In this document: piece by piece, positions 1-31,249 of the stretch
How the letters are laid out: each line of letters begins with the position of its first letter
Position numbering within the stretch: position 1 is the stretch's first letter
Assembly: GCA_050084985.1 (NCBI GenBank)
Contig: JBITNC010000001.1
Location: forward strand, 103,044,001 to 103,108,000
DNA length: 64,000 nucleotides
Direction: 5' to 3'
Origin: Nageia nagi
Taxonomy: Eukaryota > Plantae > Pinophyta
Translations under genes and position numbers: made by a program
The notes under the pieces: model-generated
Told to the model about the DNA's origin: nothing
Databases searched by the model: none
The model's input: only the letters and a program-made list of their open reading frames with translations

Positions 1-1885
1 ATTAATCCCTTAGAAGCCCAACATTCCATTGTGGGGTCCCATAATAACTTAAAAAACGTTTTTTGCACATGTTGAAATAAATTAGTAATATTTATGACAT
101 TATTATGTGACTTTTTTTTTTAAAAAAACATATCACTTAAATACTTTAGCATTTCACTAAAATACCTCTAAAACACTTCTAGATGTATTAAAACACGACT
201 AAGTTGTCCAAGAGGAGGGATGTTCCACCCATGAAAAAACTTATTCAACACTTAAACAAAAAGATATAATATTTACAAAGTTTATCAAAATTTGGGAGAT
301 TACATGATACTTGGATGAATGATCTCCTTGCCACTTGTGTGCTCTCTTATCAAATTTAGCACCCAAGTGTGGTTGTAGATGAATTTTGTGATTGTTATCG
401 CTTCTTCAACCACATTTCTAATGCATGTGAGCCTACTAATGTACTATAGGATACGATCAATGCAATGGGTTTCACATAGGCCCCAAAATATGGTGGGGTA
501 GTTCTACTCTAGAGGTTTTCTTGCAACCACATATATTACAATGTTGTCCATCACTACTTGGACAACATTCTCCATACCCACTTCCAACACCACCTCCTTA
601 GGCAAGTTGTAAATCAATTGTGTATTTTTATATAATGTGATGTGTTAACCGAATTCAAGAAGACCATTAATCCACTTGAAGCCACCATGAAGTTGATGTG
701 TGTGCAATTCCTCACATCTGCCCACCTGTCTAACAAAATATTGCATCCATGTTTGTGTCAACCCTTTCCTTGCTCAAGGGCACATGTGTTGGCAATTACC
801 TCCTCAAGCAAAGGTCTGTTGAAATCCTTTGTGGTATGAAGCTTCATCCCTCTTCCAACAACGGAATACTATTGCCATGGCATCCTAGTAAGGACTATTT
901 GTAACATTAAAAGGAATGTTGCAATAGTGCCAAATATTTGTAGCTGTTGTTTGCATTGCTTTGATCTTCTATTTCCCCCATGTTGTTCTATCAGGGAAGG
1001 TTGTGTCTCTTTATGAGAAACAAAAAACATTGGATTTGTAATATCACTTGTTGAAAATCGAACATGTGAGCCAAACATAGACACTTCTTGTGATCCTGAT
1101 TCATAAATCTTCCAGTAATCATCCAAGCTCCCCCCAAGCCTTGCTCCAACTGTAATCTTGGTATTTTTCCATTCTGACTTTTGTTTTGATTTTGAAGCAA
1201 TTAAGGCTTGAATCTCATGAGTGATCTTAGGAGGCACAACATCACAAAGTCCTATATCAATCAGGTATCCTTGCAAGATGGAATTTAAGTCTATTGATAC
1301 CACCCTTGTAATGTTTTTTTTTGCAATAGTTGCAAAAAATTTGGTTTGGAAGATCACCCATTTGTGTATGCTTCCAAGCAAGATTCTTCCCTTTGGGTGC
1401 ACTTGAATAGCCCTCATTTGCAAATGCCATTTGCAAAGTGCAAAAAAAACCCATTTGAAGGAAAGAAAAACCCTAACCCTATTTTTTTTAACAAATTTTA
1501 AAAAATCAAAAATAAAAAAATACCCATTTGAAGTATGGGCATTGGCATTAAAAAAAATTGTTTAGTGAAAATAAATAAATAAAAAAAAACTACCTCTTCA
1601 AATGCTCAATGAAAATAAAAAAACTCATGGATGAATCACAAAATCTCGTGAAATCTACGATGAAAAGTTTGAAATCCATGATGAAGCTCCTCAAATATGG
1701 TGAACCTTTAAATCCTCCATGAATAAGACTGTCTTTTTCCTGCGTCTTTTCCTCTCGATGGTTGTTGAGATGTCTAGTTTTCAGACAAGTTACCTATTGG
1801 AAATTCATCGAAACTCGACAGTGAGTTACTTGGTCAAGCAAAAATGCATGAGTTTTCGTGTTTACTCACAAGTTTTCCATCATTG
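1..1885 (-). mobile_element. hAT DNA transposon, 5' part (continues left of window)
   Basis: Contains a decayed hAT transposase. Candidate terminus CAATGATGGAAAACT (reverse complement ending 1885) with ACTC/GAGT subterminal motifs at ~1790-1880. LINE sequence begins immediately after 1885. The other end and the TSD are not visible. Confidence 0.7.
250..1454 (-). pseudogene. hAT transposase pseudogene (BED zinc finger + DUF659/RNase H-like core)
   Basis: ORF 1257-1454 gives AWKHTQM...IFCNYCKK..GGINRLKFHLA (BED finger). Downstream frames give GCNILLDRWAD...HINFMV, EVGMENVVQVVMDN and FWGLCETHCID. Frameshifts and stops are present. Confidence 0.88.
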
Positions 1886-2291
1886 GTTAAAGTAGTCTCA
1901 TGCAATTCCCCAATGGATAGAAGATGATCACAAGTTACTTTTAGGTGATTTGGAACCTTGGTTGGGACTATTCATGCACATATCTAATGTAGCTTGACAA
2001 TCTTTAGTGAATGGCTCAATTATAAAAACTTGTTTATAATGATCAACAAACTTGGAAAAAATATCAGATTGTTCTATGAAGTGAATATTATCCGTTATTA
2101 GATTATGTATTTGGGTGGAATTAATTTGAGTTCAAACTCTTGAAAAAATTGGTTAATGACTTTGTCCCCAATCCACAACTAGTGCATTCAATCTCAAACT
2201 TGAGCTTCTCAAGCTAGAGTCGATTGTTGCCATATAGTTTCATTGAAAGGATTCTTTTTTGACTCTTGAGAGAGCTTAGCATGCTCTCGAG
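1886..2291 (-). pseudogene. LINE ORF2 fragment (endonuclease-RT linker), left part
   Basis: Minus strand reads DIFSKFVDHYKQVF ... LLSIGELHETTLT, typical of the L1 linker just before RT. It is collinear with the endonuclease part at 17800-18830 across the TCGAG TSD. Confidence 0.65.
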
Positions 2292-2308
2292 TGTTAACTA
2301 TGCAACAT

Positions 2309-3504
2309 TGTAAGGATCCAAAACACAACTCAAGTGCAATTAAACCCAAAAGCACAAGTATGCACCCAACGTCTGTCTAGAAGATTAATTACAAGCATAC
2401 AAACCCTCAATATGCCAACATTAGGGTTAGGGCACTAAATACAAGCTTAATCAACATACAAATGCCAACGTCTGGCCCATACATACACATACATGCAAAA
2501 GTAAGCCAATAATGCCAATAGACAAGTATGCACAACACGAATATGAGATCCAAGTGCCCAATGATTGTATAGAAGATATGAATGTCAAAGCAATATAATA
2601 TTGAGCTCCCAAAGTTGGACGTTGGCCTTCAAGGAGCCAACTAGGGCACGTCGTGTATCCTCAATGCTGGACGAACAAGTAGAACCATGGGACAACCTCG
2701 CTCCCTCAGATCTTGAATCCTTTCCACCAAAGGAGCCCTACTCTGAACCTGGTGGCCAACTGAATGACAGAAGCTCAACCTCGGAATACCACCGAATGGG
2801 AAAGGGTGCTACACCAATGCCGTAGATAATTAGGATCACTCAGCTTGATAGTTTTCCTATATGCTGCACCTAGGGGATTGCTTAGTGCCGTTAAGACTAG
2901 TGTCCACAGGACAGTATCAATAAGATAATAGTATAATCAGGTATATCCAACAATGAGGCTCCAATGCCTCTTTATACACTCAACTTTGTTTGGATCTCAC
3001 CGAGGAGTCATCACTCGACTTTTTAATCCCAACGTTAGCCTCCTGGGGGCCCAGAATGCCCAACATGGGTGCTTAGGGGTCAAGCATGCCAACGTGGGGG
3101 CTTGGAGTGCCATAAATGCCAATGTGGGGTCTAAGAGTGTTACGCATGCCCAACGTGGGTCTGGGAGCCATACGTGGGGTCTAGTTGTCATAATGGGCCA
3201 ACGTGGGGGTCTAGGAGTTTCCCAAAGGTTGGCGCATGTATATACAAGTGCTCATCCATCCACTTAAGTGTAAAACAAATCTTGGAATTCCTACAATCAA
3301 GATCGGGATCTCCAAGTATAATAAAACACCTAATCTATGCTTGGGAGGAGACGTCCCACTTGGGGCTCACAGTGGGGTCTATTGACGCATTAAGTCTTCT
3401 ATCCTAAGTAATAATGTGGAATTACAATGCAATAATAAAATATATTACAAGAGGAATCCGTTGGATTCCACAATTCATTACAATCATGCAAGGGAGATGT
3501 CACA
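2309..3504 (-). mobile_element. Solo LTR (~1.2 kb), inverted relative to the copy at 5241
   Basis: TGTAAG...GTCACA termini; TSD AACAT/AACAC (2304-2308, 3505-3509). Reverse-complement homology to 5241-6424. Strand is relative only. Confidence 0.85.
3030..3235. repeat. ~30-bp tandem repeat rich in CAACGTGG inside the solo LTR
   Basis: Units ending ATGCC start at 3061, 3091, 3121 and 3151 (e.g. aacgtgggggcttggagtgccataaatgcc). Confidence 0.75.
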
Positions 3505-4070
3505 AACACTCCCCCTAATTATGTGAAATTTAGGGGCCCACTATTAGAAAATAGGAGTGGAGACTTGAGTATGATTCGGGGAGTGAACTATGCTTCCATA
3601 CATAAATATGCAAATGTAATGGCTAGATAACCCGAAGTGCAACTTTAAGTGTGCACTCAAAAGAAGTTACGAAGGTGAATTCCTTAAAAGGGAAAAGTAG
3701 GAAGTGCAACAAATCAAAGAAGGCAGTTCAAACCATACCCCCAGACCTTGATGGAAAGCAACATGAAAATTGTGAGCATCAGTTCAAAGCTTTGAGCTAA
3801 AATTGCAAGGTGCTTACAATAGATGAAAGAATGCTTGCTAGAGTTACCAACAAATTCGAGCAAAATTTCACCAAGTATGGAGGTCCAAAACAATGGTTGT
3901 GTGGTTGGGCAAGGATTGAAGTTCAACTATCAAAAATGATGCGACCATGCACCTAAGACCGTTCATTGCTCTTCTCTAGGAGGTTGCTTGCATGTGGGAT
4001 GAATGGCAAGGAAGCGCTTATTAATACCCCCCATCATACTGAAATTGGACTAAGTCCTTAGCCTTTGTCA

Positions 4071-6990
4071 CCTGGTTGCATGCCCCCAACAAGATACAAT
4101 CTTAATTTTTTGGGAAGGTAAGACCAAGAGGAGAAGTTGGTGTCCGGGCAGGAAATTGAACCTACCACTCCATTTTGCATTTGAGCTACAAGTGGCATCA
4201 TTGGAACATTTGCATGCTGAACAAGGGGTAGTAAATTCGTTTATAAATACCCTTTCATGTTCTTTAAAATGACCAAGTCCCTAGCCTTTTCAACATGGTT
4301 TCATGTTTTCAGAAAGATACACTCCTGAAATTCCAAAAGGGTGCGACCAACAACATAATAGGTTTCCGACAAATTTTGGGCCAAAATTTGGCTAAGGAAC
4401 ATGGGCCTTTCCCTAGCTTGGTCACATGGTCTTCACAAGATGCCTTTGTAACTTCTCATTTAGGTGTGACCAAGAGGAAGAAGATAGGAAAAATGGCAGA
4501 TTTTTGTTAAAATATAGTGAAATTTTTGGTGGTGGCATGATCCCAAAAGGATACTTTCCTAACTATTTTCAACAATGCGACCATCCATGGGGCCTCTTTG
4601 AACCAAAATTGGCTAAGTATGGAGCTAGTTCTCTCCTTTAGGGCTTGGTCACATGTCGTGCCAAAGATACAATTGTAACATTTAAGAGAGGTGTGACCAC
4701 CCTCTTGGGCCTGCATGGATCAAATTGATACTTGGCATAACCACAAGGTGGTGATACATCATTGGGCCCTCATCTTGGCCTCTGAATTATGGACAATTGG
4801 CATGGAAAATCACTATAAAAGGGGGTTTTCCCCTTATTCTTGTTTTGTTTAGTTAATTGACCTAGCACAACATTCCCATTTTTGGTCGCACCCTCCTAAA
4901 AGAATTGGCTATGTGTGAAGTCTAAATGCCTATGAACCTGGTTGCATGTTCCAAGAAAGTTAATTTTGCATCATTCTTAAAGGATGCAACCACCCTTGTG
5001 AGGCTCATTTTTCATCTAAGTGTGGGATGTAGCCCTCCATCCTTGGTCGCATGTTTTGAGAAGGATACATTTGTGAAGTTTTGGAGAGATTCGACCACCT
5101 TATTTTGCATGCACATGGTGAAGATTTGATACTTGTAAGGGAGTCACCCCTCCATCCATTGACTCCATGCCACCTAGCAGTCAACCAAGTTATAAAAGGG
5201 GGACTTAGCTCATTTTTTTTCAAACGTTTCTCTCCCTAAGTGTGACGTCCCTGTTGCATTATTGTATTTATATATGGAATCCAACAGATTCCCTATTGTA
5301 TTATATTTAATTACTTAATTGTGTTTTAAGTTAGTACTTGGGATAGAAGATTTAATGGGTCATTGGACCCCACTATGAGTCCTAAGTGGGACGTCTCCCT
5401 CCCAAATGTAGATTAGGTGTTGTAATGTACTTGGAGATCCCGATACATGATTGTGGGAATCCCAAGGTTTGTTTAACACTTAGTATATGGATGAGCACTT
5501 AAAAGGCCCCAACGTTGAGATTGGGAGCACTTGTACACATGCGCTAGCCTTGGGGAGACTTCTAGACCTCCACGTTGGCCCATGAAACCCACGTTGCCCC
5601 CTTAGATGCCCACACATGCCTCCTAGACCCATGTATGCATTCCTGGATCCACGTGGAGCATAGGGGAGGCCTAGATACCTACATTGGACCTGAAATGACT
5701 CCTAGGTGCCAACGTTGGGGCTTGAGGGGACTGGGTGATGACATTGAGGTGCAATCCAGATCCAAGAAAGCTATATTAGCCCTTGGAGCCTCATTTTTTG
5801 GATATACTGAATATTTATAATTGCTTATACCGTTCGAAGGACAAGAGTCTTAGTGCTGTGCTAAGCAAGATCCCTAGGTGCAACATTTAGGAGGATTAGC
5901 AGGTTGGGATCCTGTTAGTCTACGACTTTGGTGTAGCACCGTAGCCCATTCGGTGGTATTCCGAGGTTGAGCTTCTACCTTTAGTGGTCACCAGGGTTTG
6001 AGAAGGGCTCCTTTGGTGGAGAGGAATCAGATTTTGAGGGAGCAAGATTGTCCCACTCACCATCTGTTTGTCCAACAAAGAGAGACATACATCATGCCCT
6101 AGTTGGCACCTTGGAGGCCAACGTACAACTCTAGGGGCTTGGTATTGTATATGCATAATTTCTATATCATATATATGGCCGTTGGGCATTTGGATCTCAT
6201 GTTATATTGTGTATTTGTCCATTATTGCAACGTTGTGGTATTATTGTCCATTTGTGCATATTGTAGCCAAACACTGGCATTGTGAGGTGTTGTTCATTGT
6301 TATCTACCATTCTTGGCCAAATGTTGACAATCTTGTATTGTTTTTGCTTTGAATTGATGCCCTAGTTCAAACGTTGGAGTATACTTGCATGTTTGTGGCT
6401 TAATATTGCATTTAGGCTTTTACACTAAGGCTGGTCGCATGGTTCTTCAAAGTTACTATCCCATCTCCAAGGTGCGACCAAGTCATAACCTTTGCACGGA
6501 GAAAAATGACACTTGTTTGTTAGCCACTTTTTCATCCCATGATGAAATGACACATGTCCCCATTCAAACTATAAATGCATGTGCACTTGGTCTCATTTTG
6601 CATTAATCATTCTCTCCAAGGGTGGTTGCATGGTTTTCAAGAGATAATTTTGCATCATTTAAAGAACTTGCACCCACTAAACTGGGGGAACTAAGACAAG
6701 TTTTGAGCTAAGTCCTTGTCTCTATTGCCTAGTCGCATATGTTCCAAAAGTCACATTTGTAACTTTGTCTTAAGATGCCCCCACCCCCCCATATGAGCAT
6801 AAAGGAATTAAGATTTTAATTAAGTAGGGGCCCACACTTGGTCGTTGCTTGCATGGAGATACGACTCCAACTTTTTTGCATAGTCATCACCTTTGTGTCC
6901 AACCCACCTCATGTGCGTTTGTCTAAGTCTTGTGAGTCCATCATCTTGCATTAACCAAAGATACCAAGATTACATCCAACTTTGGTGCGA
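4071..6990 (+). repeat. Array of degenerate ~55-bp palindromic repeats (GGTCGCATG...GTGCGACC) in unit A, split by the solo LTR 5241-6424
   Basis: Units near 4071, 4295, 4417, 4530, 4644, 4938, 5042, 6431, 6621 and 6729. Example at 6431: ctggtcgcatggttcttcaaagttactatcccatctccaaggtgcgaccaag. Confidence 0.8.
5241..6424 (+). mobile_element. Solo LTR (~1.2 kb)
   Basis: TGTGAC...TTTACA termini; perfect TSD CTAAG (5236-5240, 6425-6429); homologous to 2309-3504. Confidence 0.9.
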
Positions 6991-7389
6991 CCAAGGCAAT
7001 TGTGTATTATCCAAACCTCCATGCATTAATTGGGTCCCACAAGGTGACAAGGAAGACGTTTTGAATTTGCATTTAAGGCTCAAGGTGCATGTTTTAAGTC
7101 ATTGCATTCTTTTAAGGACCCAAGGGGAGGTCGACCACCTTCTCCACTAAAACCATTGTGTTTAGAGATTCATGTATTAATGCATCATGTAAGTGCCCTA
7201 AGACACACAAAAATTGAAATAAAAAATGTAGGGCATATGGGTTTGCCAAGCATAATTGACCCCACTTTTTCCACTTTGTTAGTGTCAGCACGTTCGTGAC
7301 CTTGTCTACCCTAAGTTGCTTGCACCACCCCCACTGTGTTTGCCAGTCAGTTAGGTTGTACACTACTCTGTTTGTTTTGCAGGTTCGAG

Positions 7390-10150
7390 ATGTCGAAGAT
7401 TAATTCTAAACTCAGGTTACAAAGAACTCCAATTGGGCAAATTGTCTAAACCTAGTTTGACAGAATTCGCCAAGGAGAATCCTTAGGACCCCTTGAGATA
7501 AGAAAAATTTAAAAATAACATCTCCAACATTTGAGATAACTACTGGTCTCTTACAGATCCAAGTCAAACATTGCATTCTATTGGCAAATTGGAGAGGACT
7601 CAGATGCTTAATGGGATAATTTGCATGTTGGGTCTGGCCATCGCCACCTTGTTTCCATTTGCAGCGTCATTTCCCGAGCTATGTTGTGAAGTGGGGAGGT
7701 ACTCCAATTTCGAGGATCAATCCCTTTATGATGTCAATGGTATCAAAATCCTCGATTTTTCTACTGAGGGCATTGAGGAAGCCTTCAAATGGAGAAATGA
7801 ATGGGTCGTTTACATAGAGGACTCCTTAGACTATTATCATAAATTCCACCGGGCCGGAGATCTCATCAGAGATTGGCTTGAAAATGAAAGTAAAGAGTTC
7901 TTCGGGAACAAATCGATAAATGCAAAAAGGCAACATTTCTACCCTACCATTTCCAAGATCATCAGTATGTTACAAGGCTCATAGGCAAAGAGGACAATGT
8001 GAACTCTTGGGAGATAAAGAGAGGTACCAAAACAAAAGGGAAGAGAGAGAGAGATCTAAGACATACACCAGGTTTTGGCGCTTGAGGGAAGAATTGAACA
8101 AAGAATCCAAACTCTGAGTAACCCTCTTGTGACTACCAATGAGAGATCCACCTCCTCTTCAAGGGTGAGAAGACACCAAGGGTGAATAGGAGAGAATGCT
8201 ACTTTGGGTGGCTCCGGGCCACAAATTCATTTTGTGGTTCCAGAGATTGTGAAAGACGTCCAAGTTATGGCAAAAATGGGATACTTGGATTTCCCTCTCC
8301 AACAACTCAATGATGCGACTCTAAAGAGCATCCCCATAATGCCCATAGTTGTTGTAAGACCAGAGCATCCCTTGGCCATCCCAAGTCTCTTGACCCCTAC
8401 GTAAGATTGGTTAGAAATGGAGATTCCTGAGCAAGTTGGAGTGGAATTCTAGATGGACGATGAAAACGTTGCCAAAACTCTTGTTGCAAACCAACCAGCA
8501 TAGCCTGACTCACCTCACCACTCCTCATCTAGCTCCTCTTCTGGCTTCGAGATGTCCTTTGAGTTCTCCAGTTCTTCTAAGTCCAGTTCAAATGAAGAGC
8601 GAGAAGGTAGCTCATAAAGAGAACATGAGGATGAGGATGACGATGACTTGCATATTGGCTCCCAAGATACACAAATTGTGAATGTGGAAGGGGAATCCGA
8701 TACTATGCTCGGTGTAGCACCACCATGATCAATGTTAGTGAGACAAGCCCCTTCCTCCGAATCCACCACTCCACGTAGGAAAAAAGAGGTCACCACTTTG
8801 ATAGGAGGCTCACAAAGCAACGCCCAACAAACCCTTGACTCCGGGAAAGACAGTCCCTATGTCGGTAGGGAATGGAGGAGATGAGGAAGATAAGGGTGAA
8901 AATGAGGAACAAAACTTGAGCATGGCAGCTAGAAGCCCTTGAAAATCTAGGAAAAACCAACAAAGGCCCAGAACCAGCTGTTGAGGAGATTCCAAGAGAG
9001 CTCGGCTCCACAAATATTGACACCACTTTGGCCAATATTGTGTTAAATGGTGGTCCCCATAAGCATTAGGATTTCAATAAATTGACGCAATCATCAAGAA
9101 TTTGCAAATGAGCTTGAGAATGGGAAATGCCTTTGAAGATTTCCCCAATCGAAGAGCTTGAGACCTTTGTCTCCATGAAAAGGGACTTGGTGACCATCAA
9201 CAGGTGTTATTCAAAGTAGAAACGTTCGCAAGATTTGCAAGATGTGTGAGTCCACACTGAGGATTATAAATTCAAAAAAATTGGATGAGTCGGATAGAAG
9301 CATACCATTAACTATAATGTGGATGAGATTGTGAACCAAGGGATTGAAAAAGAGTAGAAGATTAAGGAATTGAAAGAGAGCTCACCGACAAGAACAAGTT
9401 GGTGAAGGAGATTGAAGATGCCAAAATGTCCATTGAAGACATCAAGCTGCAGGCCTCCTTGAACATTGGCGTAACTTCAACGAAGGAATCCCTGGTGAGT
9501 GAAATAATGAGGATTGTCAATGAGCTTTCCCTTCGGATTGTTGCTCTCATGGATGAGGAAAAAGCAGAAGAGAACATGATTGTCACAATATCCCAATTAT
9601 TAGAGTCGATGCAGAATCATGAGCAGACCATGCAAAACTTGAGGAGGATGTCTATGAGATAGGCGGACCAGTTACAATATTGCCAGGAGTTTGCTTATCA
9701 CCTATGCTAGCTGAGATATGTAGAATGCGAATGCGCTAAGCTGATTAAGGCGAGGGTGGACCTGTTGATAACCCTAACCTTTTAGATGGGTCAATTTATC
9801 CAACCAGTTAGGTTTGTTAACGAAGATGGGAGCGAAAGGAAGGTCGAGCTCATAACCCACGAAGTCCAGAACACTGTCAGGGAACTTCTCTTCATTAAGG
9901 ATGTGAACCTGTTGAAAGCAGGGAAGCATATTGAAAATCAATAATAGTTGGCCATTTGGAAGTTTAGATGGAATGCACCTCTTGCTACATCTTGGATTTC
10001 CACATTAGGATGGATGAAGATCTGCCAGGTGCGCTTGCAGGAGGGTTTTCCATGGTGAAGGTTGTCATCGAGGATAACTCATAGGATTCCAGAGGAAGTT
10101 TTCCTCGTTGCACAAGGTGGAATTACCAATGCATACTGGAAAAGTGCATA
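7390..10150 (+). pseudogene. Decayed long ORF of unit A (unknown protein: conserved N-domain, acidic linker, coiled-coil C-terminus)
   Basis: ATG at 7390 follows an acceptor-like ttgttttgcag. Fragments 7571-7984 and 9399-9662 align with the unit B ORF (LYDVNGIKILDFSTEGIEEAFKWR vs LRDTEGNVIVNFSPTRIEAAFGWR; YCQEFAYH vs YCHEFTYH). Stops and frameshifts present; 3' end approximate. Confidence 0.75.
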
Positions 10151-10501
10151 TTTTATTAATTGGATATGATCTTTTCAAAAGATATAATATTTTATTGATA
10201 TGACTTTATTTGACTTGCGCTGTGATGGATGAGTTTTTGCTTCCATAGCCACAAGAAACTTTGATGTGACAATGATGTGGTGTATGGGCGTTATTCTGTA
10301 GCCGTAGTTTTATCATGTATGTGTTGTGCCTACACAACACCTTGCAAAATTTTTGCATTTTGAGGACCCTCAAAATAAAAAGAAAAAATGCATGAAAGTA
10401 ATAGTTGTCAAAGGGAATGCATGCATTTTTGTGTAGTCTCAAGAAACATGTTAAAACTGCACTTTCATGGTCAATTCAAGTCAGAATTGTGCATTTTTCC
10501 G

Positions 10502-11823
10502 CAGTCGCATGTTTTCGAGTGAGTACGTTTGCACACCTCTCGAACGGTGCAACCAACTTCATGCTGCATTTTCATACTCATCACTTGCATTTTCATTCTT
10601 AGAATTGCACTTTTGAGGTCCCTCATGCTACAAAAATTTGTCTCCCTCATTGCATTTCATGTTTGAAGTCATTTTGGTCAAAATGCAAGGCAAAAAAACC
10701 ATGTTTTCAGCTTGTTGCATGTTTTCAGGTGAGTGCTTTTTCACCCACCCAAAATGGTGTGACCAAGTTGAAGTCCCTCATACTTAGCATATTTTTGGGA
10801 AAGATTGTTGCATGTTTTCAAATGAGTGCTTTTGCACCCATCCGGAACCGTGCGACCAAGGAGGAAGTCTCTCATACTTAGTCATTTTTGAGGCCATCAA
10901 AGCTTGTCGCATGCTTTCGAACGAGTTGTTTTGCATTGTACTCAATCCATGGGACTAGGAAGAAAAAGGACTTAGCCGTTTTTTGGGCAACCAAGGCTAG
11001 TCGCATGCTTTCAAGTGAGTGCTTTTGCACCCAACTCAAAATGTGTGACTAGATGCATTTGACCCGGAAGGCTATAAAAGAGAAGTCAGCCTCAGTATTT
11101 CAGTTTGCAAATTTGTCTAGAGCATTGTGTGGAGTCAAGGGAGAAAAAGCACTCCCTTCAAAATGTGCGACCTATGTCAAACTTGCATTTTCCAAGTCAT
11201 TTTTGGAATTTTTGGTCTTGGGAAGCAGGCCAGATGCTAGGCGCAAGGATCAAGGTGCATGCTTTTGCACCATTTCAAAATGGTGCGACTAGGAATTGAG
11301 CTTCAGTATCGACTTGGAATTTGGCTAATTGTCTAAAAGCCTAGTCGCATGCTTTTCATTATATGCTTTTGCACTCCGTTAAAACCATGTGCCTCTATTT
11401 TGGCTTCGTCATTTGACCCCTAGTTTGACCAACCCGAAGATGACATGTGGTAGTTCAGAATGTTTTAAATATCACACCACCCCTTAGTCATTTTAATCAC
11501 TTGATTTCAAATTTACCACACTTTCCCCCAATTGCACCATTTCTAATGCATGCTTTTGCACTCATCTAAAACAATGCGCTAGGGAGAAATAAGGTGTTTA
11601 ATGGGATGCTGTGCATCTAGTTAGCTTTTTCTTGGCTAAGGCATTTCAGTGAAGTCCCAAGCCTAGGCACATGGTTTTAGACACATGCTTTTTCACTCAT
11701 CAAGATCCATGTGCCCAGGATTGAGGTGAAGAATTATGCTCCAAAATTCAACTAAGTGATCCCAGGCCCAGTCGCATACTTTTCAAGTTGTGCTCAAGCA
11801 CTCATTCAAAATTGTGCACCCAG
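10502..11823 (+). repeat. Array of degenerate ~55-bp palindromic repeats in unit B
   Basis: Units near 10502, 10711, 10804, 10902, 10996, 11255 (partial), 11340, 11660 and 11767. Consensus about GTCGCATGYTTTCAAGTGAGTGCTTTTGCACCCA...GTGCGACYAG; ~95-bp period in the core. Confidence 0.82.
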
Positions 11824-11926
11824 AATTGCAAGGTAAAATTGGTCAATTGTGAGACACTAGGAGTTGAAATGAGAAGAAGACAAGTGGCAAGCATGTACCC
11901 TGCCATGCATTCACCCTCCATGCATC

Positions 11927-11940
11927 TCATATAAAGGGGA
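11927..11940 (+). promoter_or_regulatory. Putative TATA box of the unit B ORF
   Basis: ATATAAAGGGG lies between the palindrome array and the ATG at 12065. Similar TATAAAAGGGG motifs occur in unit A at ~4815 and ~5191. Confidence 0.5.
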
Positions 11941-12064
11941 AACAACTATCATTCAGTGTGTTGGACGTCCTACAACCCAAATCTGCACGTCTGACTCTAC
12001 CTTGCTGCATTTTTCACGTCCAGATTTGTCCTTAGGTTTTCTTGGGGTATTTAAACATTTTTGC

Positions 12065-15000
12065 ATGGCTTCCAGTGTCAAACCACCTCCATCAAGGACC
12101 AAGAAAATTCAAGGCCAGTTATTTGAGAGACATGTGACCAAAAGTCAGATGACTCAGCTTTCGAAAGAAAAACCTGATTGGATTTTAGGAGAGAGAGAGA
12201 GAGACTAGAGCTCCTTGAAGCCAAATTCAAGGGAAGATACATCTTTGTTGGTGATACAGACTGGGGAAACTTAGACCCCATCTAGACATTAGCCTGCGCA
12301 GCCTCCATTAGTAAGGAGGACTTATCGGAAGAGCTCATCCACACGTGGCTTGTTCAATGCCACTATGATGCCTTTTGCATTACCTTTTTTTGACTTGAGC
12401 TGTGAGGTGGCTAGGAAATGTGAATATTACAAGAGTCTTACGGGACACAGAGGGAAATGTAATCGTAAATTTCTCCCCTACTAGAATTGAAGCAGCCTTT
12501 GGCTGGAGAAGATATGGGGACGATTACACGTTGGCACACTTTGAAGAATTCCATGATTCAATGCCCCGGCTCGAGGACTACATTCAGCTTTGGTTGTTGG
12601 AAGATTACCAAAATCTTCAAGGTCAGAGGTCGATTATCGCTCGTAGAGAGGAGTTCTTGCTTGTTGTAGCCAAGTTGATCACTCTCTTATCGAGGGTTAC
12701 TGGTCAGAAAAACGATGCTAAGTACAGGAGCGAGTTCACGGGCTTCATTGTAGCTATCAGCTCGGGGAGAGCTATCCAATGGGCTAGGGTAATTAGTGAT
12801 GCCCTACGCCACCAATTAGCCTACTTTGGCTCCTCGAAGAGATTCTATATGAACTCTTATCTTTTATACCTGTTACTACATGGCAAGGTTAGATCCAAGG
12901 AGTTGGTTGACGAAAGATATTTAGGGCAAAAGAACACCCTCGTGTGGCGAGCTTATCCAAAGTGGTGGTACCAGAACAAGTTCCAACATTTCCGTGAAAG
13001 GAATGATCATTGGGAGTATGATATCTACAAAAAACATCAAAGGGGAGTCCGTGGTAAAGAGGATTTTTGATGCAGCTGTCCAAGCTATCAATGTACATTC
13101 AGATTTCTTTCTGCATAATGTTGACCATACATTCATGAGAGTGTATGGCTCAGAGGAGTGACCCCTCCTCCTACCAAGATATGCTAGTGACAGGATGATC
13201 CTGATGGAGTTTGCTAGACAACGTTTGTTCTTGAAGGAGAAAGTTTGGAAGAAGAAGAATGCAACCATCAATTTGCCTATCTCAATAGCAAAATATGTGT
13301 GTCAAACGTGGGTTGAGGCAACCAATATGAAGAAGCTGCAACAATATGCCTTTTCCAAGGAGGTGGCTGCGAGAAACTATGATCCTTGGGGTATAATTGC
13401 ACATTTCTATGACATTGCATTCCACAAACCTATTGCGTTTTTGCATAAGTCTTTGGGGAATGTGGAAAAATATTGGAATGTGCAGGATGAAGAGGAGATT
13501 GCAAGGATAGATGCTCTTCTGAGCAAGAAAAAAGCTCCCCTCCAAGAGGAAAAACCACCTCAGAGACCCCGAACCACAAAGCCTAGATCTAAAGAGGTCT
13601 CTCTTAGGATCAAGTCGTCTCCTTCCCCTATTCGTATTGCATCTCTACCAGGAAAGACGTTCTTGCTTCCTGTTGGAAAGAGGAAAGAGGTTCTGAGGGA
13701 ACATATTATGGGTCCCAACAAGTGCAATGTAGTGGTGGTTGATCTCAAGGACACTGGTTATCACGCTCTCCCCTCGAACGTGCTAGACAATGTAGTGGAT
13801 GAGGCTTGTGCCAGTGATTCACCCACCAAAGCAATCCCTTCCAGACTCACTCATTCTCTTGGATGCAAGGAGAAAGTTCCCCCTTTGCAACCAAGTTCCA
13901 CTTCTTCGAGTCTGGCCATATAGTGGAAGATTCCAAAGAAGAATTAGAAACCCATGGTGGAAGAGAAGAAGAAGAAGAAGAAGATGATGATGATGCTACC
14001 CCTGTCCCTGAGCAAGAGGATGTAGCTATACGTGCTTCTGCACTCGATGAGACGGAGTTCGAAACTCTCTCGGATGATAATGAGATAGTGGACGTTGGAA
14101 CATATGATGATGACATCCAAATCGTTGGAGAGAAGTGTGCTAGAGAGATGGTTGCCTCCAAACCTTCTCCTGTTGAGCATAGGATGAAGTCCCCTTCCTC
14201 TTCGTATAAATCCTCCACAAAGAGGATGAGCCATGAGAGATCTCCCCAGCCACAGAATAAAGGCATATCTATAGGCGGTAATTGAAGAGATGAGGAAGAT
14301 GTAGGAGAGATTGAGGAACAAAAGAAGAGAAGGCAGGAAGAGCACCAAGGCAAGGAGATCGTTGTAGTTCAGACCACCAACGAAAGAGGTCAAGAAGATT
14401 GACAGAGGAAGATTGTTGGTTCAAAGATTTCCTCCTCAACCAGCAACCGAGCATCCGGATCTTGACCTAGATGCCTGCCTTAGAACCCTTAGCATGAGCA
14501 CAACTCATGATGAAGATATAGACCAGGATCTGCGCTTCGAAGATGAGGAAGAAGAGCTTTCAGATGGTGAGAAAATTTGAAGGGTTGACATGTTTGTTTC
14601 CACTTCTCGAAATGAATCCATCAGCCATTGCTATTCGAAGGAGAAACACCCTTAGAGAGTAGAGGATTGTGTCATTGAGACATTCAAGATGCCTGTGAAG
14701 CTAGGATTGATAGCCCTTAAACACAGTCACCCAGAATGCTATAGTCATGGAGCAAGAATGCTATGAAGCTAAGAAGGAGGTAAAGAGATTAAAAAGGAAA
14801 ATCATCAAGGAGTTCCAGAAAGTCAGTACCACCCCCTTAGATCTGTAAAAGCAGACCTCCTACCATGAGGGATGGGAAGTGATGGAGCAGCTAAAGAAGG
14901 AAGTGATGGAGGTTATTGAGAGATTGTCTTCTCGAATTTACAAGCTCCTCTCTAAAGGTGTGGAAATCAGGGACCTCAAGATGCAAATCTCAACACACCT

Positions 15001-15533
15001 TAGTACGTTGGATAGCCATCTTCCCAACGTCTCCCATCTGCAACATATTTATGCTGACAATCTCGAGATGCTAGTCTACTGCCATGAGTTCACTTATCAT
15101 CAGGATTGTTTGAACCATGCACTTGAAAAATGCAATGCAGCCCTGAAAATCATAATCCCCTTGAGAAAGGAGGTCGAGGAACAAATGAGTGAATAGCAGC
15201 TCAAGTTCCAAGGGGATGACAACAATGTGAGAAAGGAGGAGGTGGTGCTGGTAGAGGCTCAGAATCTAATATCGGAGCATCTTGATGTCTACGATCTCAG
15301 CTTGCTGAAGGAAGGGCATCCCATCATCCATGAGAGACAGATGGTCATCTAGAGACACCAGATGCAAGCTACATTGAAGAAGATGGAAGACTACTTTCGG
15401 AAGAATGGTAGCACCGTTGGCATGATTTCCAGGGGTGTACAAAAGACTAGCATTCTTGGAAGAGACCATTGAGCCGTACAATCTCACCGACGAGGAGTGG
15501 AACTTTGCCAGTATCGGATCAGATTTGGCCTAG
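12065..15533 (+). pseudogene. Decayed long ORF (~1150 codons) of unit B, unknown protein
   Basis: Starts MASSVKPPPSR. Fragments 12402-13070 (WARVISDALRHQL...FYMNSYLLYLLL), 13195-13923, 13863-14285 (acidic) and 14879-15196 (coiled-coil-like). No gag, PR, RT, RH or INT motifs. Confidence 0.8.
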
Positions 15534-17799
15534 GTCTAATCCACCTGCAGATTCTATCTGTGGTTTCTTTTCTTTTGTTAAATGCATATTTGATGATGGT
15601 TGTTAGATTAGACTTTACTTCACTTGATTTGACTGGTGTAGGGATGAGGTTTTACTCTCGCCAGATCGAATCAATCAGACTTATTTATGGCTCTGACCGG
15701 TGCAGGGATGAGGTTTTGCTCCCATCGGTTCAGATGTTAGACTTCTTTATTGCACATCTGATTTACTTTTGAGTAGCTTAGAAGTAGGTTAAATGCATGT
15801 TAGTTGTGGCATTTATGTTTTGTCAGACTTTTAAGTGCCACTTACATCGATTCATGTAGGTAATATGATTTTGTTTTGATATGTGTGTTGCGTGTGTGCA
15901 CATCATATTGGATTTGATGCCTTTAGGGCAATGCTTTTAGTGGCCTATTTATACCCCATCTTGGCCATTTAGAAGGGGATTTTAGCATTTGGGATATTTG
16001 CATTGGAGGAATTTTGCAATTTTGCACTTGGAATACTGCATGATATTACGCATTGTTGTATATGTGAGACTTTGCACTTACTAGAAATATTGCATATTGA
16101 AGAACTTGCATTTTGGGATGCTAGCTACAAGCTTTTATATGTGCAAGAATTTTGTTCATCATTGAATATCATTATGAATGTATTTCTTTTGAGGAATGAG
16201 ATTATAAAGTTTATACTGTGAAGGATGTCATTTGTGGGATCATGCATATACGAGTAACTTTACTTTTGGGGTTGTATACTGAATATTCATTGAAGTAGTT
16301 TGAGTTTTCTTTGCATGGTTTGCATATAAGTGGATGTATTTTGAGGCTTATAGCTTGTCTTTATATCATTCGGTTAGGTTCTTGCACTCATGCCCTCACT
16401 TTATTCATTTCCCCACCGAGTTTTCCACCAAGACCCTACAGCTTCTTGCTCTCGTCTGGTAGTGATTTGAGCATATTTTGCTATTTGCTACTCGACTTGA
16501 TAGTGAGTGTACCGAGACATTGCATCACTAGTGATATCTTCATAAGTTCACCCTTCCTTGTATTCCTTTGCATTTATCCCTTTGTTTTGTCCCTGCATTT
16601 GTGATCTTTCTTCGCTTTCGTTCACATTTGTAGTCTTTACTTATTGTGGAAAGGAACTCTAGCGTGGTATTTCCCTTGTATACGGTTTACAATATGCATC
16701 TCTGACTACTGAGCCTTAAAGACCATATTCCATGTGAGCGCTTGGGGTAACCAGTCCTTTCAGGCAGAAACAAGTAACGCTGTTTCCTCCAAATCTTGTG
16801 CATGTTTTGGACTAGTAAAGAAAAACATACCAACAATATATTAGTTTTGTTGATGGTTTTTGCTTTGATAGTATTAGGGTTTGTTTTTGCTGTTTTAGGG
16901 CAACATTGCCATTAATGCTAGGGTAACTCTTCATTTAATGAAGTTGTCAGACATTATGTTATAAGTACCCTAGTTGGGTCATTTTGTAGGAGATGTGTTT
17001 TTTGGGGAGAAGTTTTGGAGTTGAAGCTTCCAATTGCATGCATTGTTTCATCATTTTGGGAAGTTCTAATATTAATGCAAGTGATGCCTTTTCATTTCAT
17101 GGGATTCTGGATTTGCTACATAGCATGCTTGGTATGCTATTAGTTATTTGTATGTTTACGAGCATTTTCTATGAAAGTTCAGCACTTTAGGAAAAGCAAG
17201 TTGAATATCTTTCTTAAGCATATAAATAGCCGTTTCTCAAATTTGTATAAAGTTGTATTTTGGGATCCTTCACTCTTATGTCATTTGATTAGAAATTTTC
17301 ATTGGGAAGATAAATGAATGTTTCACTTCACCCATTGTCCACCTTGACTACTGCCCTGTGCTCTTGCCTAGAAGCGATTTGGACCTGGTAGTTCTCTTCC
17401 TTGCTTGATAATCCACATGAATATTCTTAATAAATCTGAGAGATAATTGCACAACGGTGATAAGCCATCACATATCCATCCCATCACTCTCCAATTCCAT
17501 CGATTGATCAGTCCCATCCTCACACTTTCTGCTTTTACATAATGTCACAAGAACACTAGTGGTAAAGAGCCCAATAGGTCCGTAGAAATTGTGAGTTAAT
17601 TACCTCGAGCACATCCTCACTTGAGCCATCTTGTGATAAAAAGCGAAACACACAATCATCAAACCACCATTACTCATCATTTGACATATCACAAAATAAA
17701 CTTTGGGGTTAGAGTCCTTTCAAGTGGGGGTAGGTACCGCTACCTCACCTTTGTGGTGTTGTTTCCCACGGGGGGGGCGGGAAGAAACTCACGTCAACA

Positions 17800-18830
17800 T
17801 CGAGTTAAGGCTAAATTAGACTATTTTTGAAATTTGGCAAATTTAGCACCATATGATTGCAAAAGAATTGGTAGTTCTTTGAAGGGCCTCCTTCTACCAA
17901 AATATCCATTCTCCTCTCCAACAGGCCAAGGAACCAGGTTCTATACTTGCTGAATATGTTTTATTGTAGGAGGGTATAACAAAAAAGAGGTATTCATGAT
18001 AAACCTAGACCTAGAAGGTTGTGGGTAATTAAGATCCCATAGAATTTCAAACTGCATGGGAGTAATGATCAAAAAGGAAAAACAGAACCTCGCAATGGAA
18101 ATACTGGAATAGATAATTCAGGACTGAAATCAAATTGGGGCTGGCTGGAAAGCATAGCTCTACCAAGTCTCTTTTCTACTAATTTCTCTATCGAAAATTT
18201 GATCAAGCATTGCAAACAACGGAGTTGCATTGATGCTTTTGTAACTGAAGAATCAGGGTCAAAGAGGCCAAGGGTTTGCTTGAAAAAACACCATGCCTCC
18301 CTCTCTCTTATAAACTAGTGTTAAGAAAGTGATTCAATCTTAACCTACTGCAATTCCACTATGTTAAAATCACCACATATAATCCATGTTGCAAGGGGAA
18401 TATTTTCTATTAACCATCTCTAAAGCTTGCAAGATTCATCAACAGCATATCTACATACTCCTTCAAATCATAAGATAAGTCAATTTCAATTCATACATAC
18501 TGCGGAGATCAGAGTAAAATTGTGGCTACTCATGGTAAATAAACCTGCCTAAGGGCCTAGCTAAATGCTCTATAAATGGTCACAAAGGCAATGGTAAACC
18601 AGGTAATTCTATGCGTATTGGAATTTTGAAGGCAGAAAAATCAGAAACAATAAGGTTTTTTGCTCAACGGAAAAAAACAAGCGAGGAACTATGGATATAC
18701 CAAGGACCATGGTTAACAATAGTATCTCAATGCTCAGGAATGGTAAAATGAAAAAAAAAAAACTTGATCAAATTTTGTGCTGCATTTAATTTAATCCTGT
18801 GGGAATCCCAAGTGGAATTAGCTCAAGCAC
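17800..18830 (-). pseudogene. LINE ORF2 AP-endonuclease domain fragment
   Basis: Minus strand gives PLATWIICGDFNIVE, KRLGRAM (RLDR motif) and FDHYS (SDH motif) in the expected order. Confidence 0.8.
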
Positions 18831-19333
18831 ACACATTATCTTTAGAAGAGATTCAACCAATATAGTAACCTATTAGGGTAAAACTCTCAAGCCAAACACA
18901 TGCATTTTCAAATTCTTAAACAAGAAGCACAATGTCTCATATAGTATCAGTACCAAATTGAGCTTTGGGGGTTGCTATAACCGAAATAGCAGCCTCCTCC
19001 AAAGAGGCAATGATAAAAAACTGCCTTCATGCCGTGTATATTATTAATGCAAAGATAAATTTTATTCTTTTCTCAGAACATCACGCCTGTTTACATTGTG
19101 TAACTTTAGCATTGTTTATATGCATTGTATTAGGAAAATAAATTCTGATATCATCTTGAACTGTTCGCTAGTATGGGTTCCTAGCATCAGAAGTGCCAGT
19201 TGTATCCATGAATCTTTTAGTTAAAAATCTAATGCAGCAAGCGGTATTGATTTTTTTTTTACGAGTTAATGAGAATTCTTTAAATAAACACTCTTTCAGT
19301 TCTTGATGATTTGAAATTGCTTTTCATGTCTAG

Positions 19334-19405
19334 GCAAAAGCAATGAAAGAGCAGGCTCAACTACGGGAAGAAATGAATTATCAGTTTAGATTGGGTAATT
19401 ACGAG
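19334..19405 (+). CDS. Penultimate coding exon of an At5g53800-like 'nucleic acid-binding protein' gene
   Basis: ag|GCA...GAG|gt, 72 bp, AKAMKEQAQLREEMNYQFRLGNYE. Matches the conserved C-terminus I recall for this plant family (recall, not a search). Confidence 0.8.
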
Positions 19406-19494: not shown

Positions 19495-19542
19495 GCTGCT
19501 GCTGCAATTCAAAAGAGGTTGGATCCTGATGCACCAGCATGA
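19495..19542 (+). CDS. Last coding exon of the same gene
   Basis: Follows an 89-bp GT-AG intron (19406-19494) and encodes AAAAIQKRLDPDAPA* in frame. AATAAA at ~19782. Confidence 0.82.
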   Translation, partial: AAAAIQKRLDPDAPA

Positions 19543-26903: not shown

Positions 26904-27631
26904 TGTAGATGCTTAAAAATGAGTTAGTTTTTATTTAATAAATCATATTTAGACTCATTAAATGATTAATTAACAATAATACATAAATCAAGATAAAGTG
27001 CTATTATATTGCAATACCATGTGTTAGGACCAATGCAATATCATAAACCATGGGTTTTATTTTAAATTGTCTTGAATATAGAAAATATTATTGTTATTGC
27101 TATGCGTAAGCTTTCACTCCGTTTTTTTTCTTGCAGGTTATAAATACAGGAGGTGATGTTTGACATCCCTATCGGATCTCTCTGATAGGTGGTTTTCCTA
27201 AATATCAAACTTATGATATCTCTTGATGCCACCTATCTTGAGAAATTTGTTATACTCTTTGAGCTCTATTATCTCTCTTTTGTGCGCGACACGAAACATC
27301 AAGTTCCATGCAGCCAGCAACGTACCATTGCCACATAGCCTTTTAGATCAGGAGGTCCAAATTTCAGGGAATGAATTGTGGTTCCATTCTAGAGAATATT
27401 TATTACGAGCTCATCTAAAGTCTGATCGCAATCCTATGAAGATTCATTGTTATTCTTATTTGAGGATTGTACATAAATCGACTACTTGCTTCACTTTGTA
27501 TTAGGTTTATATGTTTTATGTATATTTGTTGTATATATGATATTGAGCTTATCATTGTACAAATCATTGTATTTGTAGATCATTTATTTATTTGTGTATT
27601 TATTCATTAATTACACATTTTTGAGTCTACA
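26904..27631 (+). repeat. 5' LTR
   Basis: TGTAGATGC...GAGTCTACA; direct repeat of 35176-35897. Confidence 0.92.
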
Positions 27632-27851
27632 TTTTGGTGAATTTGACATTCTTACACACCTAGTTCTTCACCTAGGGCATCCTTATTAAAAAGTCATGAA
27701 TCCATTTTCATTGTTATTTGTCCCTCTACTTGAAGCTCTTTGAATAATAGCTAGAGAAAATGATAAAACTAGGGTTTGTTCTACTTATGTTTCAAAAATG
27801 GATTTAAACATAGAACAACCTAAGGTCTCTAAAAAAAGGTTAATTTCAATG

Positions 27852-28485
27852 ATATCCGAAGAAGTGTTAGGCATAACCCTGACTTACCTCTACAAGAACA
27901 CCCTAATAACCTTGATGTTTGTAGTGATTATGAATCTAGAAGTTCTAGCAAGAAAGTTGATATTATTGGTGAAACTTTTCATAGATTTGATATAAATATT
28001 GAACATATGTAAGTTTGAATAGTCATGAAGATGCTTCTAATGATAATGTTGAAATTGAACAATTAGATAGAATTCCTAATCGTATTAACCTATTCAAGAA
28101 TTGCTATCTGATAGAGAAAAGTTAGAATATTTCCTTACTCATAATGCTGAAACTGTTAGGCATATCCAAAGAAGTGTTAGGCATAACCTTGACTTACCTC
28201 TACAAGAACCTCACCCTAATAACCTTGATGTTTGTAGTGATTATGAATCTACAAGTTCTAGCAAGAAAATTGATATTACTGGTGAAACTCCTCATAGATT
28301 TGATATAAATATTGAACATTTTGAATTTGAATATGAAAGTTTGAATAGTCATGAAGATGCTTCTGATGATAATGCTGAAATTGAGCAATTAGATAGAATT
28401 CCTAGCCGTATTTGATCTATTCAAGAATTACTATCTGATAGAGAAAAGTTAGAATATTTCCTTACTCATAATGTTGAAACTATTA
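27852..28485 (+). repeat. ~310-325-bp tandem duplication in the extra ORF upstream of gag
   Basis: atatccNaagaagtgttaggcataacc...ttccttactcataatg occurs at ~27852 and ~28162. Confidence 0.9.
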
Positions 28486-29001
28486 TTGATATTCTAACAA
28501 ATTATGAGCTACTAGAAGAGAACTTTGTAGCTTCGCAATTGTCGGATAGTTTGTTTTCTTATGAGCATGCAAGCTCACCAAGATGAAGAGTTTCTACTAT
28601 TAATACAGACATCGCTAACATCGTGTCATCTTGTGAAAACGTTGCCACCGACGTGAATGAAGTTGAAATAAAATCTACTTCTAAGGACAACGATGATGTT
28701 TCAAAACCCCTAAGCGAAGTAGTTGTTGAGAACGATGGTGAGGAAAGTGAAGATGAAAATTATGACTACTTGATTCTCAAACTTGATCACTTTAAAAAAG
28801 GTACGCTTCCTAAAGGTTAGGATATTGTACAAGATGATCGTGATGCTCAGCTTCAAATACAAATTGCAAATATTATTTATGATGCTTATAAGAAAAATCT
28901 TGATTGGTCATTAAAAGAGCATAATATTAAAATTGAGTTCTTTCATAATATTTAAGACACTATCCCCTTTCATTTGGAGCCTTATACACAACAACTAGTG
29001 T

Positions 29002-30230
29002 GTGATGAAATTATTTGATAAATTGGAACATGAACGAGTAAATAGAATTGGACCTTTTCTTGTGCTTAAAGAGAATGAACTTACAAATGCAAGGGTTCCA
29101 CCTCAAACCCCTCCACCAACCCCAATAGATAATATACCTGTGGTTTCAAACCCAACTGAGGAAAGGATAAATAAATTGGAAATGGAATTGCTTAATGATA
29201 ACACTGATGATTTCTTGTTTTGCTTAAAATGTCCTTTGATTGATAGAATTATGTGTAAAGTGCTCAATGAGAAAAATAGTATTAAATTTACAAAATTTGA
29301 TAGCTTGCAAGATCCTAGGATGCATGTTATAAAATTTCAAGAAGCAACTATGGAATATATGGATGATAGAGATTTGCTTGCTAAATTGTTTTCACATAGT
29401 TTGAAAGATGATGCATTGAAATGGTACTTTCTTCTTCTTGAAAAAAGTATTGATAGATATGAGAATTTGATTCATCAATTTTTGCAAAATTTTAAATACA
29501 ATATCACTGAAAAGGTTCACTATAAAGATTTGTGTAAGATTAAGCAATTACCTAACCAATTTTTGGCTGATTTTGTAAAAAAATAGAAAGAAACTACTAA
29601 CAAGATTACAATGCCTGAACAAGATTTGGAAGATACATTTGCTAATGCATTATTGCCTATGTATAAGCTATTGGTTATCTCTAATTGTGATATGAGATTG
29701 GGAGAAATGATGAATGTTTTGTTTAAAAAGAGACTTGTATTAAAAACTTATATGCTATGCGTAGTAACAAACTTCAAACATATGATAAGAAGCTAAATAC
29801 TCATGAAAAAAATAAGAAATACGAAGTGAATAATGTTGACAACAATTGTAAAACTCAAACATATAACAAGAAAAAATTTGAAAGAAATAATAAACCTCAA
29901 AGGAAATTTATAGAGTTGACAGATACTGCTAATAATATTTTTAATGTGTTGTTGAAAGAACTTATTGAGCTTCTACCTATTGTTGAACCTAAATTTTCTC
30001 ATGGTATGCTTAAAATTTTTCGATGAGGAATTTTGCAATTATCATAGGGTGTACCTGGACATTTAATAAGAAATTGCAGGACTCTAAGACATCTTATTCA
30101 AGATTTCATTGACAAGAGAGCAATTAAGATGGATGACAACACTAGTGTAGATGATGGACCTGTGCACCCTAATAACGAATAATTAAGGGTGTTCACAAAT
30201 CCCTTACCTCCTTCACAACCAAGAGGTTGC
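29002..30230 (+). pseudogene. gag: gag (Ogre/Tat type), decayed
   Basis: KFDSLQDPRMHV...LFSHSLKDDALKWY; Cys-His motif FCNYHRV..GHLIRNCRTLRHLIQDFID. Confidence 0.88.
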
Positions 30231-31249
30231 ATTGGAAATGGTAAGTACTTCACATGGTTTGAATTATTATTTCACTCATAAACATGGCTGCGAAAACAAC
30301 AATTCAAAGAATGATGGAAAAGACATAAAATTCAACAATGCTAACGACATGCACCACTATTCATATGCTACCCAGGACATGGAAAAAGCGAAACCAAAGG
30401 TACCTATTTTAATTCTTACCTCTGCAAAATATGTTTGGGTTGCAGAAATATCCTAGGTATGAAAAATTATTGCTTAAAGTATAAAAATTGCATCTATAGT
30501 GTACATTAGGTAGGATGTTTTTATTTTCGGCCATTGTGAATTGTTGTTCTTTGTATGCATGAGTTTATTGATTTATTCAATTCATGATTTAGGCTTTCAC
30601 TATTTCTTCAAAATTTCGTTGTTTGACTTAGAACCCACATCGTTGAAAGCTTACCCACCTATTTTTACGCCATTAACAATGTGGTTTTCTTGGAATAGAA
30701 TAAAAACGAATAGTATTTCATTAATGCTTTCCATATTTTTGACTCATTAAAATGATTAAAAACATAAATTTGATGTTGTTCACTAGAAAAAAAACTTGAC
30801 TTTGTTTATTGTTGTATCGTTTGGTACCTTAGAACCTAGCTAGGAGGTTCGCTTATTGCTTTAGTTATTGATTGAGAATTGTAAGTGTTTAATTATTAGA
30901 TATTGCATGAATATATATTGAAATGTATTATTTGGATTCATCGATGCTTAAGCATTGCATATATGATCTTTTACTAATGGGTTCATTGCTTATTATTTAA
31001 AAATTGTACTTTGAGTTTACATGTTTTATTAAACACATTGTGCAACAATGATACTGAACCATTCACATTCATTCATAAAGCAAGTAAAATAAACCAAACA
31101 CATTTTTACACAAAGTTGAGCCCAAATAGATTTTATATAATTATATAAAAAATGAATCATATATTGTACAACATGGGGTGGCTCCAAGTCTACAACCTAG
31201 CTACTAATGAGCACTACTCCCATTGCTAGCAGTATCTCTTGTTCTCTAC

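Follow-up and report, generated by a model that had tools for sequence, protein, structure and literature searches.

In a 64,000-nt stretch of the Nageia nagi contig JBITNC010000001.1 (the window), two diverged and decayed mobile units, A and B, have long terminal repeat (LTR)-type ends and carry one homologous long open reading frame (ORF) each. We propose, at a probability of about 0.65, that both are solo LTRs of an Ogre/Tat/Athila (OTA)-type Ty3 element, with a U3 region that holds a motif array, a promoter, the ORF and a tail. In complete elements the ORF would probably lie within the repeated LTR, and membership in the Ogre/Tat/Athila-type Ty3 lineage is quite likely. Most of the window has a GC content of 26-33%, rising to 36-46% in the 1-19 kb part, and its DNA is rich in decayed retroelements. 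An earlier note on this DNA had given the coordinates, TG..CA ends and flanks of both units, as well as the nesting of B in A, and these are as claimed:

2287..2291: left copy of the target site duplication (TSD) of unit A, TCGAG, an exact match to 17800-17804
2292..17799, plus strand: unit A, TGTT..AACA ends, likely a solo LTR
10322..16835, plus strand: unit B, TGTTG..CAACA ends, 6,514 bp, nested in the 3′ tail of A, likely a solo LTR
10322..10372, plus strand: 5′ terminal motif of B, with homology to the starts of the two direct repeats at the related locus L004 (below)
16741..16835, plus strand: terminal U5-like segment of B, homologous to the LTR end preceding the primer binding site (PBS) of L004
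16841..17799, plus strand: 3′ tail of A, with a TATA-like TATAAATAG at 17221 and a U5-like final ~150 bp
17800..17804: right copy of the TSD of A, TCGAG

Both units have TG..CA termini with a short inverted repeat. The earlier note described 5-bp TSDs for both; the flanks of A are indeed identical at 5/5 positions (TCGAG; chance probability 0.0016), but those of B (GTATG/ATATA) agree at 3/5 only, both mismatches being G/A transitions (chance probability 0.13, or 0.02 counting transitions only). Once B and two 1.19-kb inserts are subtracted, the net length of A is 6,599 bp. About 0.8 kb is gone from its ORF near 7985-8050: in a profile comparison the A ORF matches positions 11-195 only and the B ORF continues to 409, which bears out the internal deletion proposed near 8005. 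Since A lacks this ~0.8 kb from the middle of the N-terminal domain, an undeleted A would measure ~7.4 kb.

The boundary of the B family is sharp at 16835. Contigs matching 10100-17950 (mostly B) numbered 6,034, 10,746, 5,218 and 2,537 in four sequencing runs, which were searched as contigs containing 7-9% of the words; no RNA run was listed as containing the sequence. At 16835 the depth, 157-1003 up to that point, falls to 12 or less, and the loose ends are varied. Three contigs with a depth of 20-87 appear to extend 6-16 letters beyond the end of B; they were not used, as the mean depth of a contig does not show whether its overhang is multi-copy. No PBS core was found in the 13 matches lying behind the B end among those listed (21 of 32), although this is an insensitive test. 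Chance ends were rejected on the basis of the TSD of A and the boundary in the reads.

A and B gave no match by BLASTN. Their proteins share 35% identity over 88 aa in the N-terminal part (E 1e-11) and 27% over 198 aa in the C-terminal part (E 1e-19), and the alignment score of their 3′ tails was reached by 0/200 shuffles. The earlier note had argued homology from the shared ends and layout. The homology stood, but the end motifs alone are weak: the 3′ 200 bp were equalled in 7/200 shuffles and the 5′ ends in 102/200, the first 17 bp of A being omitted because an insert splits them off. On the proteins, the 3′ tails and the identical 50-bp span of a repeated motif, the homology is firm. The parts of the units concerned are as follows:

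4074..5100, plus strand: first part of the A array, six 50-bp units at 4298-5095 plus a decayed unit at 4074
6430..7040, plus strand: second part of the A array, a 50-bp unit at 6625, one 45-bp unit and lone half-sites
6570: TATA-like site of A, before the ORF
7390..10080 (end approximate), plus strand: ORF of A, a pseudogene, with the ATG at 7390 after an acceptor-like pyrimidine tract
10504..11820, plus strand: B array, eight units with the 50-bp inverted pair seen in A
11073 and 11930: TATA-like sites of B, before the ORF
12065..15533, plus strand: ORF of B, a pseudogene of ~1,155 codons
15534..16835, plus strand: 3′ tail of B, T-rich, with a TATA-like site at 16203

The B ORF comprises an N-terminal domain, an acidic low-complexity middle and a conserved C-terminal region. 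Many stops and frameshifts interrupt both ORFs, which are pseudogenes; therefore, these two copies are not working transcription units, contrary to the complete transcription unit that the earlier note inferred for each body. Relatives of the B ORF (62-75% protein identity) were 11 of 196 candidates, its distant family forms 101 clusters at 50% identity, and the Atlas neighbours of the ORF were Streptophyta, with scores under 0.9. B-type ORFs were also present in four metagenome loci, L001-L004 (4 of 173 candidate stretches). Compared with the open frame of L001, the ratios of nonsynonymous to synonymous substitution (dN/dS) were 0.12 for B of the window and 0.10, 0.11 and 0.14 for L002, L003 and L004, respectively. 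These values indicate that the ORF was under purifying selection while the family spread. A host gene captured once was rejected as the source, given the high copy number and the selection among copies.

No Pfam family was above the cut-off in nine pieces of the A and B ORFs, five homologs and 51 of the 101 distant-family representatives, and PF10536, PF04195 and PF03078 did not match the ORF of the units at cut-off. A word search for longer proteins with the B domain returned 0/867 candidates, which is weak evidence; GTDB genomes and phages contained no relatives, and a PDB sequence search with the ORF gave one row only (E 0.58). Viral contigs yielded 0 protein relatives of the ORF and 0 matches to the 3′-end pattern. 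Three of them matched the array pattern by chance, with a GC of 59-68% and without DNA or profile similarity.

The array unit consists of two inverted GTCGCA-type half-sites that span exactly 50 bp, and an array lies upstream of each ORF. Allowing one mismatch, there are seven 50-bp units in A and eight in B, with 0 in both ORFs and 0 in the B tail; strict 50-bp-span pairs were 0 in 44 kb of the remaining window. Shuffled sequences gave a mean of at most 0.02 and a maximum of 1 among 500, figures that overstate the significance of the array because the motif was chosen by eye. This choice does not explain the identical span in two units that are otherwise unalignable. The motif is common to very divergent families. 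Second TATA-like sites lie ~580-630 bp from the 3′ ends (A 17221, B 16203), a placement that, together with the sites before the ORFs, would be expected of an ORF promoter plus a U3/R promoter; the site at 16203 is a candidate promoter of the genomic RNA. The B-family 3′ tail also has a conserved minus-strand TATA-like motif (window 15941-15953, L003 4524-4536, L004 18675-18688), possibly an antisense promoter.

A PBS core preceded by a CA was not found in either unit, nor a polypurine tract (PPT) before its start; there is no gag or pol in or beside the units, and no pol linked to them was found. The ends of A and of B do not form a direct repeat (5/200 and 17/200 shuffles, with diffuse alignments), and lacking an end-to-end repeat they are not two-LTR elements. 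The earlier note was thus right that internal direct LTRs, PBS, PPT and gag/pol are missing from both. Terminal inverted repeats (TIRs) beyond ~5 bp were not detected in A or B, and a DNA transposon with TIRs was rejected for this reason.

The relationship of the ends to an LTR was found at L004. On its minus strand, a CCAACA end is followed by five bases, a PBS, presumably of tRNA-Asn type, and 3.2 kb with an ORF that we take to be protease-like from its DTG pattern (no Pfam or PDB match, one unnamed homolog). The last 95 bp of B and the last ~150 bp of A align to the LTR end before this PBS (0/200 shuffles each). Two direct repeats that are 91.2% identical are located one on either side of the PBS and internal region; both start like B (0/200 shuffles each; compared with the start of A, 15/200 and 24/200), and a 48-bp form of the array unit occurs in them. 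The simplest reading of these alignments would be an LTR pair with a B-type start, array and end. Three observations weigh against this reading of L004. The middle of the first repeat is taken by another element, which leaves no visible ORF; the second repeat has a T-run before it instead of a PPT; and a short LTR in its own right could account for the 173 bp ahead of the PBS. No ORF-bearing copy was found in a pair around gag-pol, beside a PBS or beside a PPT, and in the four loci the 3′ end is visible in only one and the 5′ end in none. Whether L004 is read as having short or long LTRs, the alignments identify the 3′ end of A and B as a U5-type end.

The region behind the L004 PBS (1293-4515, minus strand) seems to contain two tandem protease-like segments and no reverse transcriptase, which points to a non-autonomous element. 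Pieces at 4516-4688 and 19204-19395 (minus strand) of the same locus are 76% identical, with a TGTTGG start and a 3′ motif of the A/B type; an extended inverted repeat flanks the first, and the PBS comes after it. They could be a short LTR or the tail of a long one.

If they were short LTRs, A and B could derive by deletion or recombination from ordinary OTA elements with an internal array and extra ORF (eORF), the 3′ 170 bp being a short LTR and the 5′ end a remnant of another LTR. The 173-bp piece before the PBS does have its own TGTTGG start, at which the homology with the second copy begins, and most of it (positions 16-173) aligns with A. In Retand elements, according to passages of PMC11963269, arrays and eORFs normally sit between pol and the 3′ LTR, and read depth is several-fold higher across the last 500 bp of B. 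However, this excess is also explained by a better-conserved tail, the L003 copy being 84% identical in the tail and 68% over the ORF. The ends of A and B lack a direct repeat (5/200, 17/200), the short L004 piece does not resemble their 5′ ends (190/200 and 101/200 shuffles), and no PPT lies ahead of the last 170 bp. The second short piece, without PPT or TSD, suits the tail of a longer LTR. In addition, one rearrangement, leaving clean att ends and a TSD, would have had to happen in the same way in two families whose proteins are ~30% identical. We consider this origin unlikely.

Movement of A and B as single-unit non-autonomous elements, mobilized whole in trans by an integrase or an integrase-like transposase, would account for the diverse flanks and the lack of a PBS in every copy with a visible end. 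The abundance of the family (2,537-10,746 contigs per run) and the purifying selection on its ORF are also in its favor. Nonetheless, the units lack what reverse transcription would use (PBS, PPT, terminal redundancy) and have no TIRs beyond ~5 bp, their ends show homology to the end of a PBS-flanked LTR, and we know of no plant pathway for moving a whole unit in trans. This explanation is very unlikely.

The identification of A and B as solo LTRs, already put forward in the earlier note, is favored by the homology of their ends to a PBS-flanked LTR and by the large solo LTRs of the window, although no ORF-bearing pair was seen. Solo LTRs of up to 4.75 kb are common in the window, which is real support. 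Giant TG..CA units at 37130-41878 (4,749 bp) and 51126-55621 (4,496 bp) have 4/5 TSDs, and a third, partial copy starts at 61395. They contain no ORF of 100 codons and have an internal 199-bp repeat; these are probably Tekay-like solo LTRs.

A possible function of the ORF product was suggested by its predicted structure. VANC21 (9lnk) is the top fold match for two different family members, and the match spans the whole N-terminal domain, 195-235 residues versus at most 103 in any other listed row. Sequence identity to VANC21 is just 6-10%, the fold match is moderate, and Foldseek against PDB and BFVD gave nothing at E<=0.001. The models suggest a VANC/PMD-like fold for the N-terminal domain; neither this nor the exact geometry of the motif pair is in the earlier note. 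If A and B are solo LTRs as proposed, the array and upstream TATA box would drive the ORF, and transcription of the genomic RNA would be started by the second TATA, ~600 bp from the 3′ end. The predicted VANC21/PMD-like domain would bind the inverted half-sites spanning 50 bp, a step for which we see the odds as even. A role of the protein in anti-silencing is more tentative: once bound, it may keep the LTRs of the family transcribable despite host silencing, like VANC for VANDAL transposons. The full element (giant LTR-PBS-internal region-giant LTR) would integrate, creating the 5-bp duplication, and LTR-LTR recombination would delete the interior, leaving a single LTR with its gene, which could work in trans until decayed. 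As for the claim that recombination leaves a gene behind, the layout agrees with it, although the gene is broken in A and in B.

For the function alone, about as probable as anti-silencing is that the LTRs are giant while the ORF encodes an accessory protein with a structural or RNA-handling role, or a transcription activator, with the array bound by host factors or integrase. The fold match is only moderate, very divergent families have the motif in common, and the functions of the Athila, Ogre and Retand eORFs are unproven. On the other side, VANC21 was the top match for two family members with the whole domain covered, PMD and DUF1985 domains have been reported as structurally alike, and the array is restricted to the non-coding DNA of the units, as are VANC targets.

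The units resemble OTA elements (TatII/TatIII of gymnosperms, Athila, Ogre, Retand) in their TG..CA ends, 5-bp TSD and long non-coding regions with repeat arrays, and possibly in the type of their extra ORF (PMD, Transposase_28 or Athila ORF), a likeness of predicted fold with no Pfam match at cut-off. An Asn-type PBS, as we presume it to be, is seen in the L004 relative and not on A/B-family copies. In the table of Neumann 2019 (PMC6317226), as far as the available parts of that paper go, the Asn PBS appears only in Athila, TatII and Retand. The same parts place OTA eORFs 5′ or 3′ of the polyprotein, with LTRs of up to ~5 kb, and give shares of 23% (5′F) and 26% (3′F) for gymnosperm TatII eORFs, with sizes to 18.1 kb; such near-equal shares would fit ORFs in both LTRs. 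Vicient and Casacuberta 2020 (PMC7264820) describe extra ORFs and arrays as internal, as does the survey of Retand elements (PMC11963269), in the sections available, whereas in A and B a single TG and a single CA, 6.5-7.4 kb apart, enclose the ORF, promoter and array.

VANC21/VANDAL21 (Hosaka 2017, PMC5735166; 9lnk) are similar in the predicted N-terminal fold and in having a short motif repeated in their own non-coding DNA. VANDAL, however, is a Mutator-like DNA transposon with family-specific 9-bp motifs in one orientation, while the motif pair of the units is inverted, has a fixed 50-bp span and is common to divergent families, and its binding is putative. LTR-type ends, a 5-bp TSD and the lack of a transposase ORF do not agree with a Mutator-like VANDAL origin. 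The LTR and ORF found in mouse mammary tumor virus (MMTV) are much shorter than the units. According to portions of PMC9412291, the sag/naf ORF of this virus has its own promoter in U3, which places a gene in each LTR and makes it the non-plant precedent; MMTV is a mammalian retrovirus, the function is immune, and no homology is implied. Retrosat2/RIRE3/RIRE8 and large retrotransposon derivative (LARD)-type non-autonomous elements share multi-kb LTRs, many solo LTRs and an extra ORF with the units. Retrosat2 has 3.2-kb LTRs and 2.6 solo LTRs per complete copy, but its ORF0 is upstream of gag-pol and was searched apart from the LTR (extracts of PMC3485330); Retrosat-2 is in the Tekay lineage in the table of Neumann 2019 (PMC6317226, in part). 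An LTR with an ORF is not described in the accessible sections of PMC3762812, PMC2633040, PMC13477047 and PMC11656987, and a term search of PMC11539532 gave no match. Among the papers listed by searches of the open literature, none reports a gene within a plant LTR in its title or the opening of its abstract; these searches left Repbase, subscription journals and the per-element coordinates of Neumann 2019 outside, and the last of these may already include such elements.

The L003 copy ends at the same base as B, and the sequence after it codes for part of a related ORF, which shows that it is nested too. Members of the group repeatedly insert into each other (B in the A tail, the L003 copy in a related ORF at 5515-5721), and a relative at L004 is inserted in a B-type promoter (8467). 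This mutual insertion hints at self-targeting or local clustering. Other insertions and the flanks of A are:

2309..3504: nested ~1.2-kb solo LTR in A, of an unrelated Met-PBS family, flanks AACAT/AACAC
5241..6424: second solo LTR of the Met-PBS family in A, in opposite orientation to the first, flanks CTAAG/CTAAG
17805..18700, minus strand: putative decayed long interspersed nuclear element (LINE) ORF2, endonuclease side, resuming left of A at ~1700-2286

Both 1.19-kb TG..CA inserts represent solo LTRs of an ordinary kind, as their family has a complete element at L004 9425-15474, which includes a Met PBS, a PPT and two 1.5-kb LTRs that are 92.2% identical. A had been said to split a LINE ORF2, and we take its flanks to be a minus-strand ORF2 from their motifs, for which Pfam and PDB searches gave no confirmation. 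The last two exons of a host gene are located at 19334-19405 and 19495-19542 (plus strand), with AG/GT borders and a stop in the second; the first exon piece (24 residues) had no Pfam match. The LINE and nested units are upstream of these exons, possibly inside a long intron. Elsewhere in the window, a complete-looking 9.0-kb element (26904-35897) has two ~725-bp LTRs that are 83% identical, the TSD ACTAT, a purine run before the second LTR and a gag domain (PF03732, E 6e-7) at 28999-29586, with no pol seen; a GC-richer minus-strand stretch at ~31200-33000 may be an antisense extra ORF. A 65/131-bp tandem repeat occupies 60159-60429.

Solo-LTR formation is treated as a step that strips coding capacity, a rule that a gene-holding LTR, if true, would break. 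The accessory gene would be doubled in each element and kept after deletion. One annotation pipeline requires the LTR pair within 15 kb (as stated in part of PMC13477047), and pipelines that limit LTR spacing or length would miss such elements and their solo copies or call them host genes; the 50-bp unit is a ready probe. Through the fold match to VANC21, a widespread protein family without a name gains a first function that can be tested. The finding bears on the role of the extra ORFs of plant retrotransposons and on the persistence of elements in heavily methylated genomes. It is a doubtful possibility that an entire anti-silencing module, a 1,150-residue VANC/PMD-fold DNA-binding protein with its array of fixed-span inverted sites, moved into a 6.5-7.4-kb plant LTR, so that recombination seeds self-regulating, trans-acting cassettes. 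In that case LTR-LTR recombination, the host's chief deletion route, would spread gene cassettes rather than inert solo LTRs.

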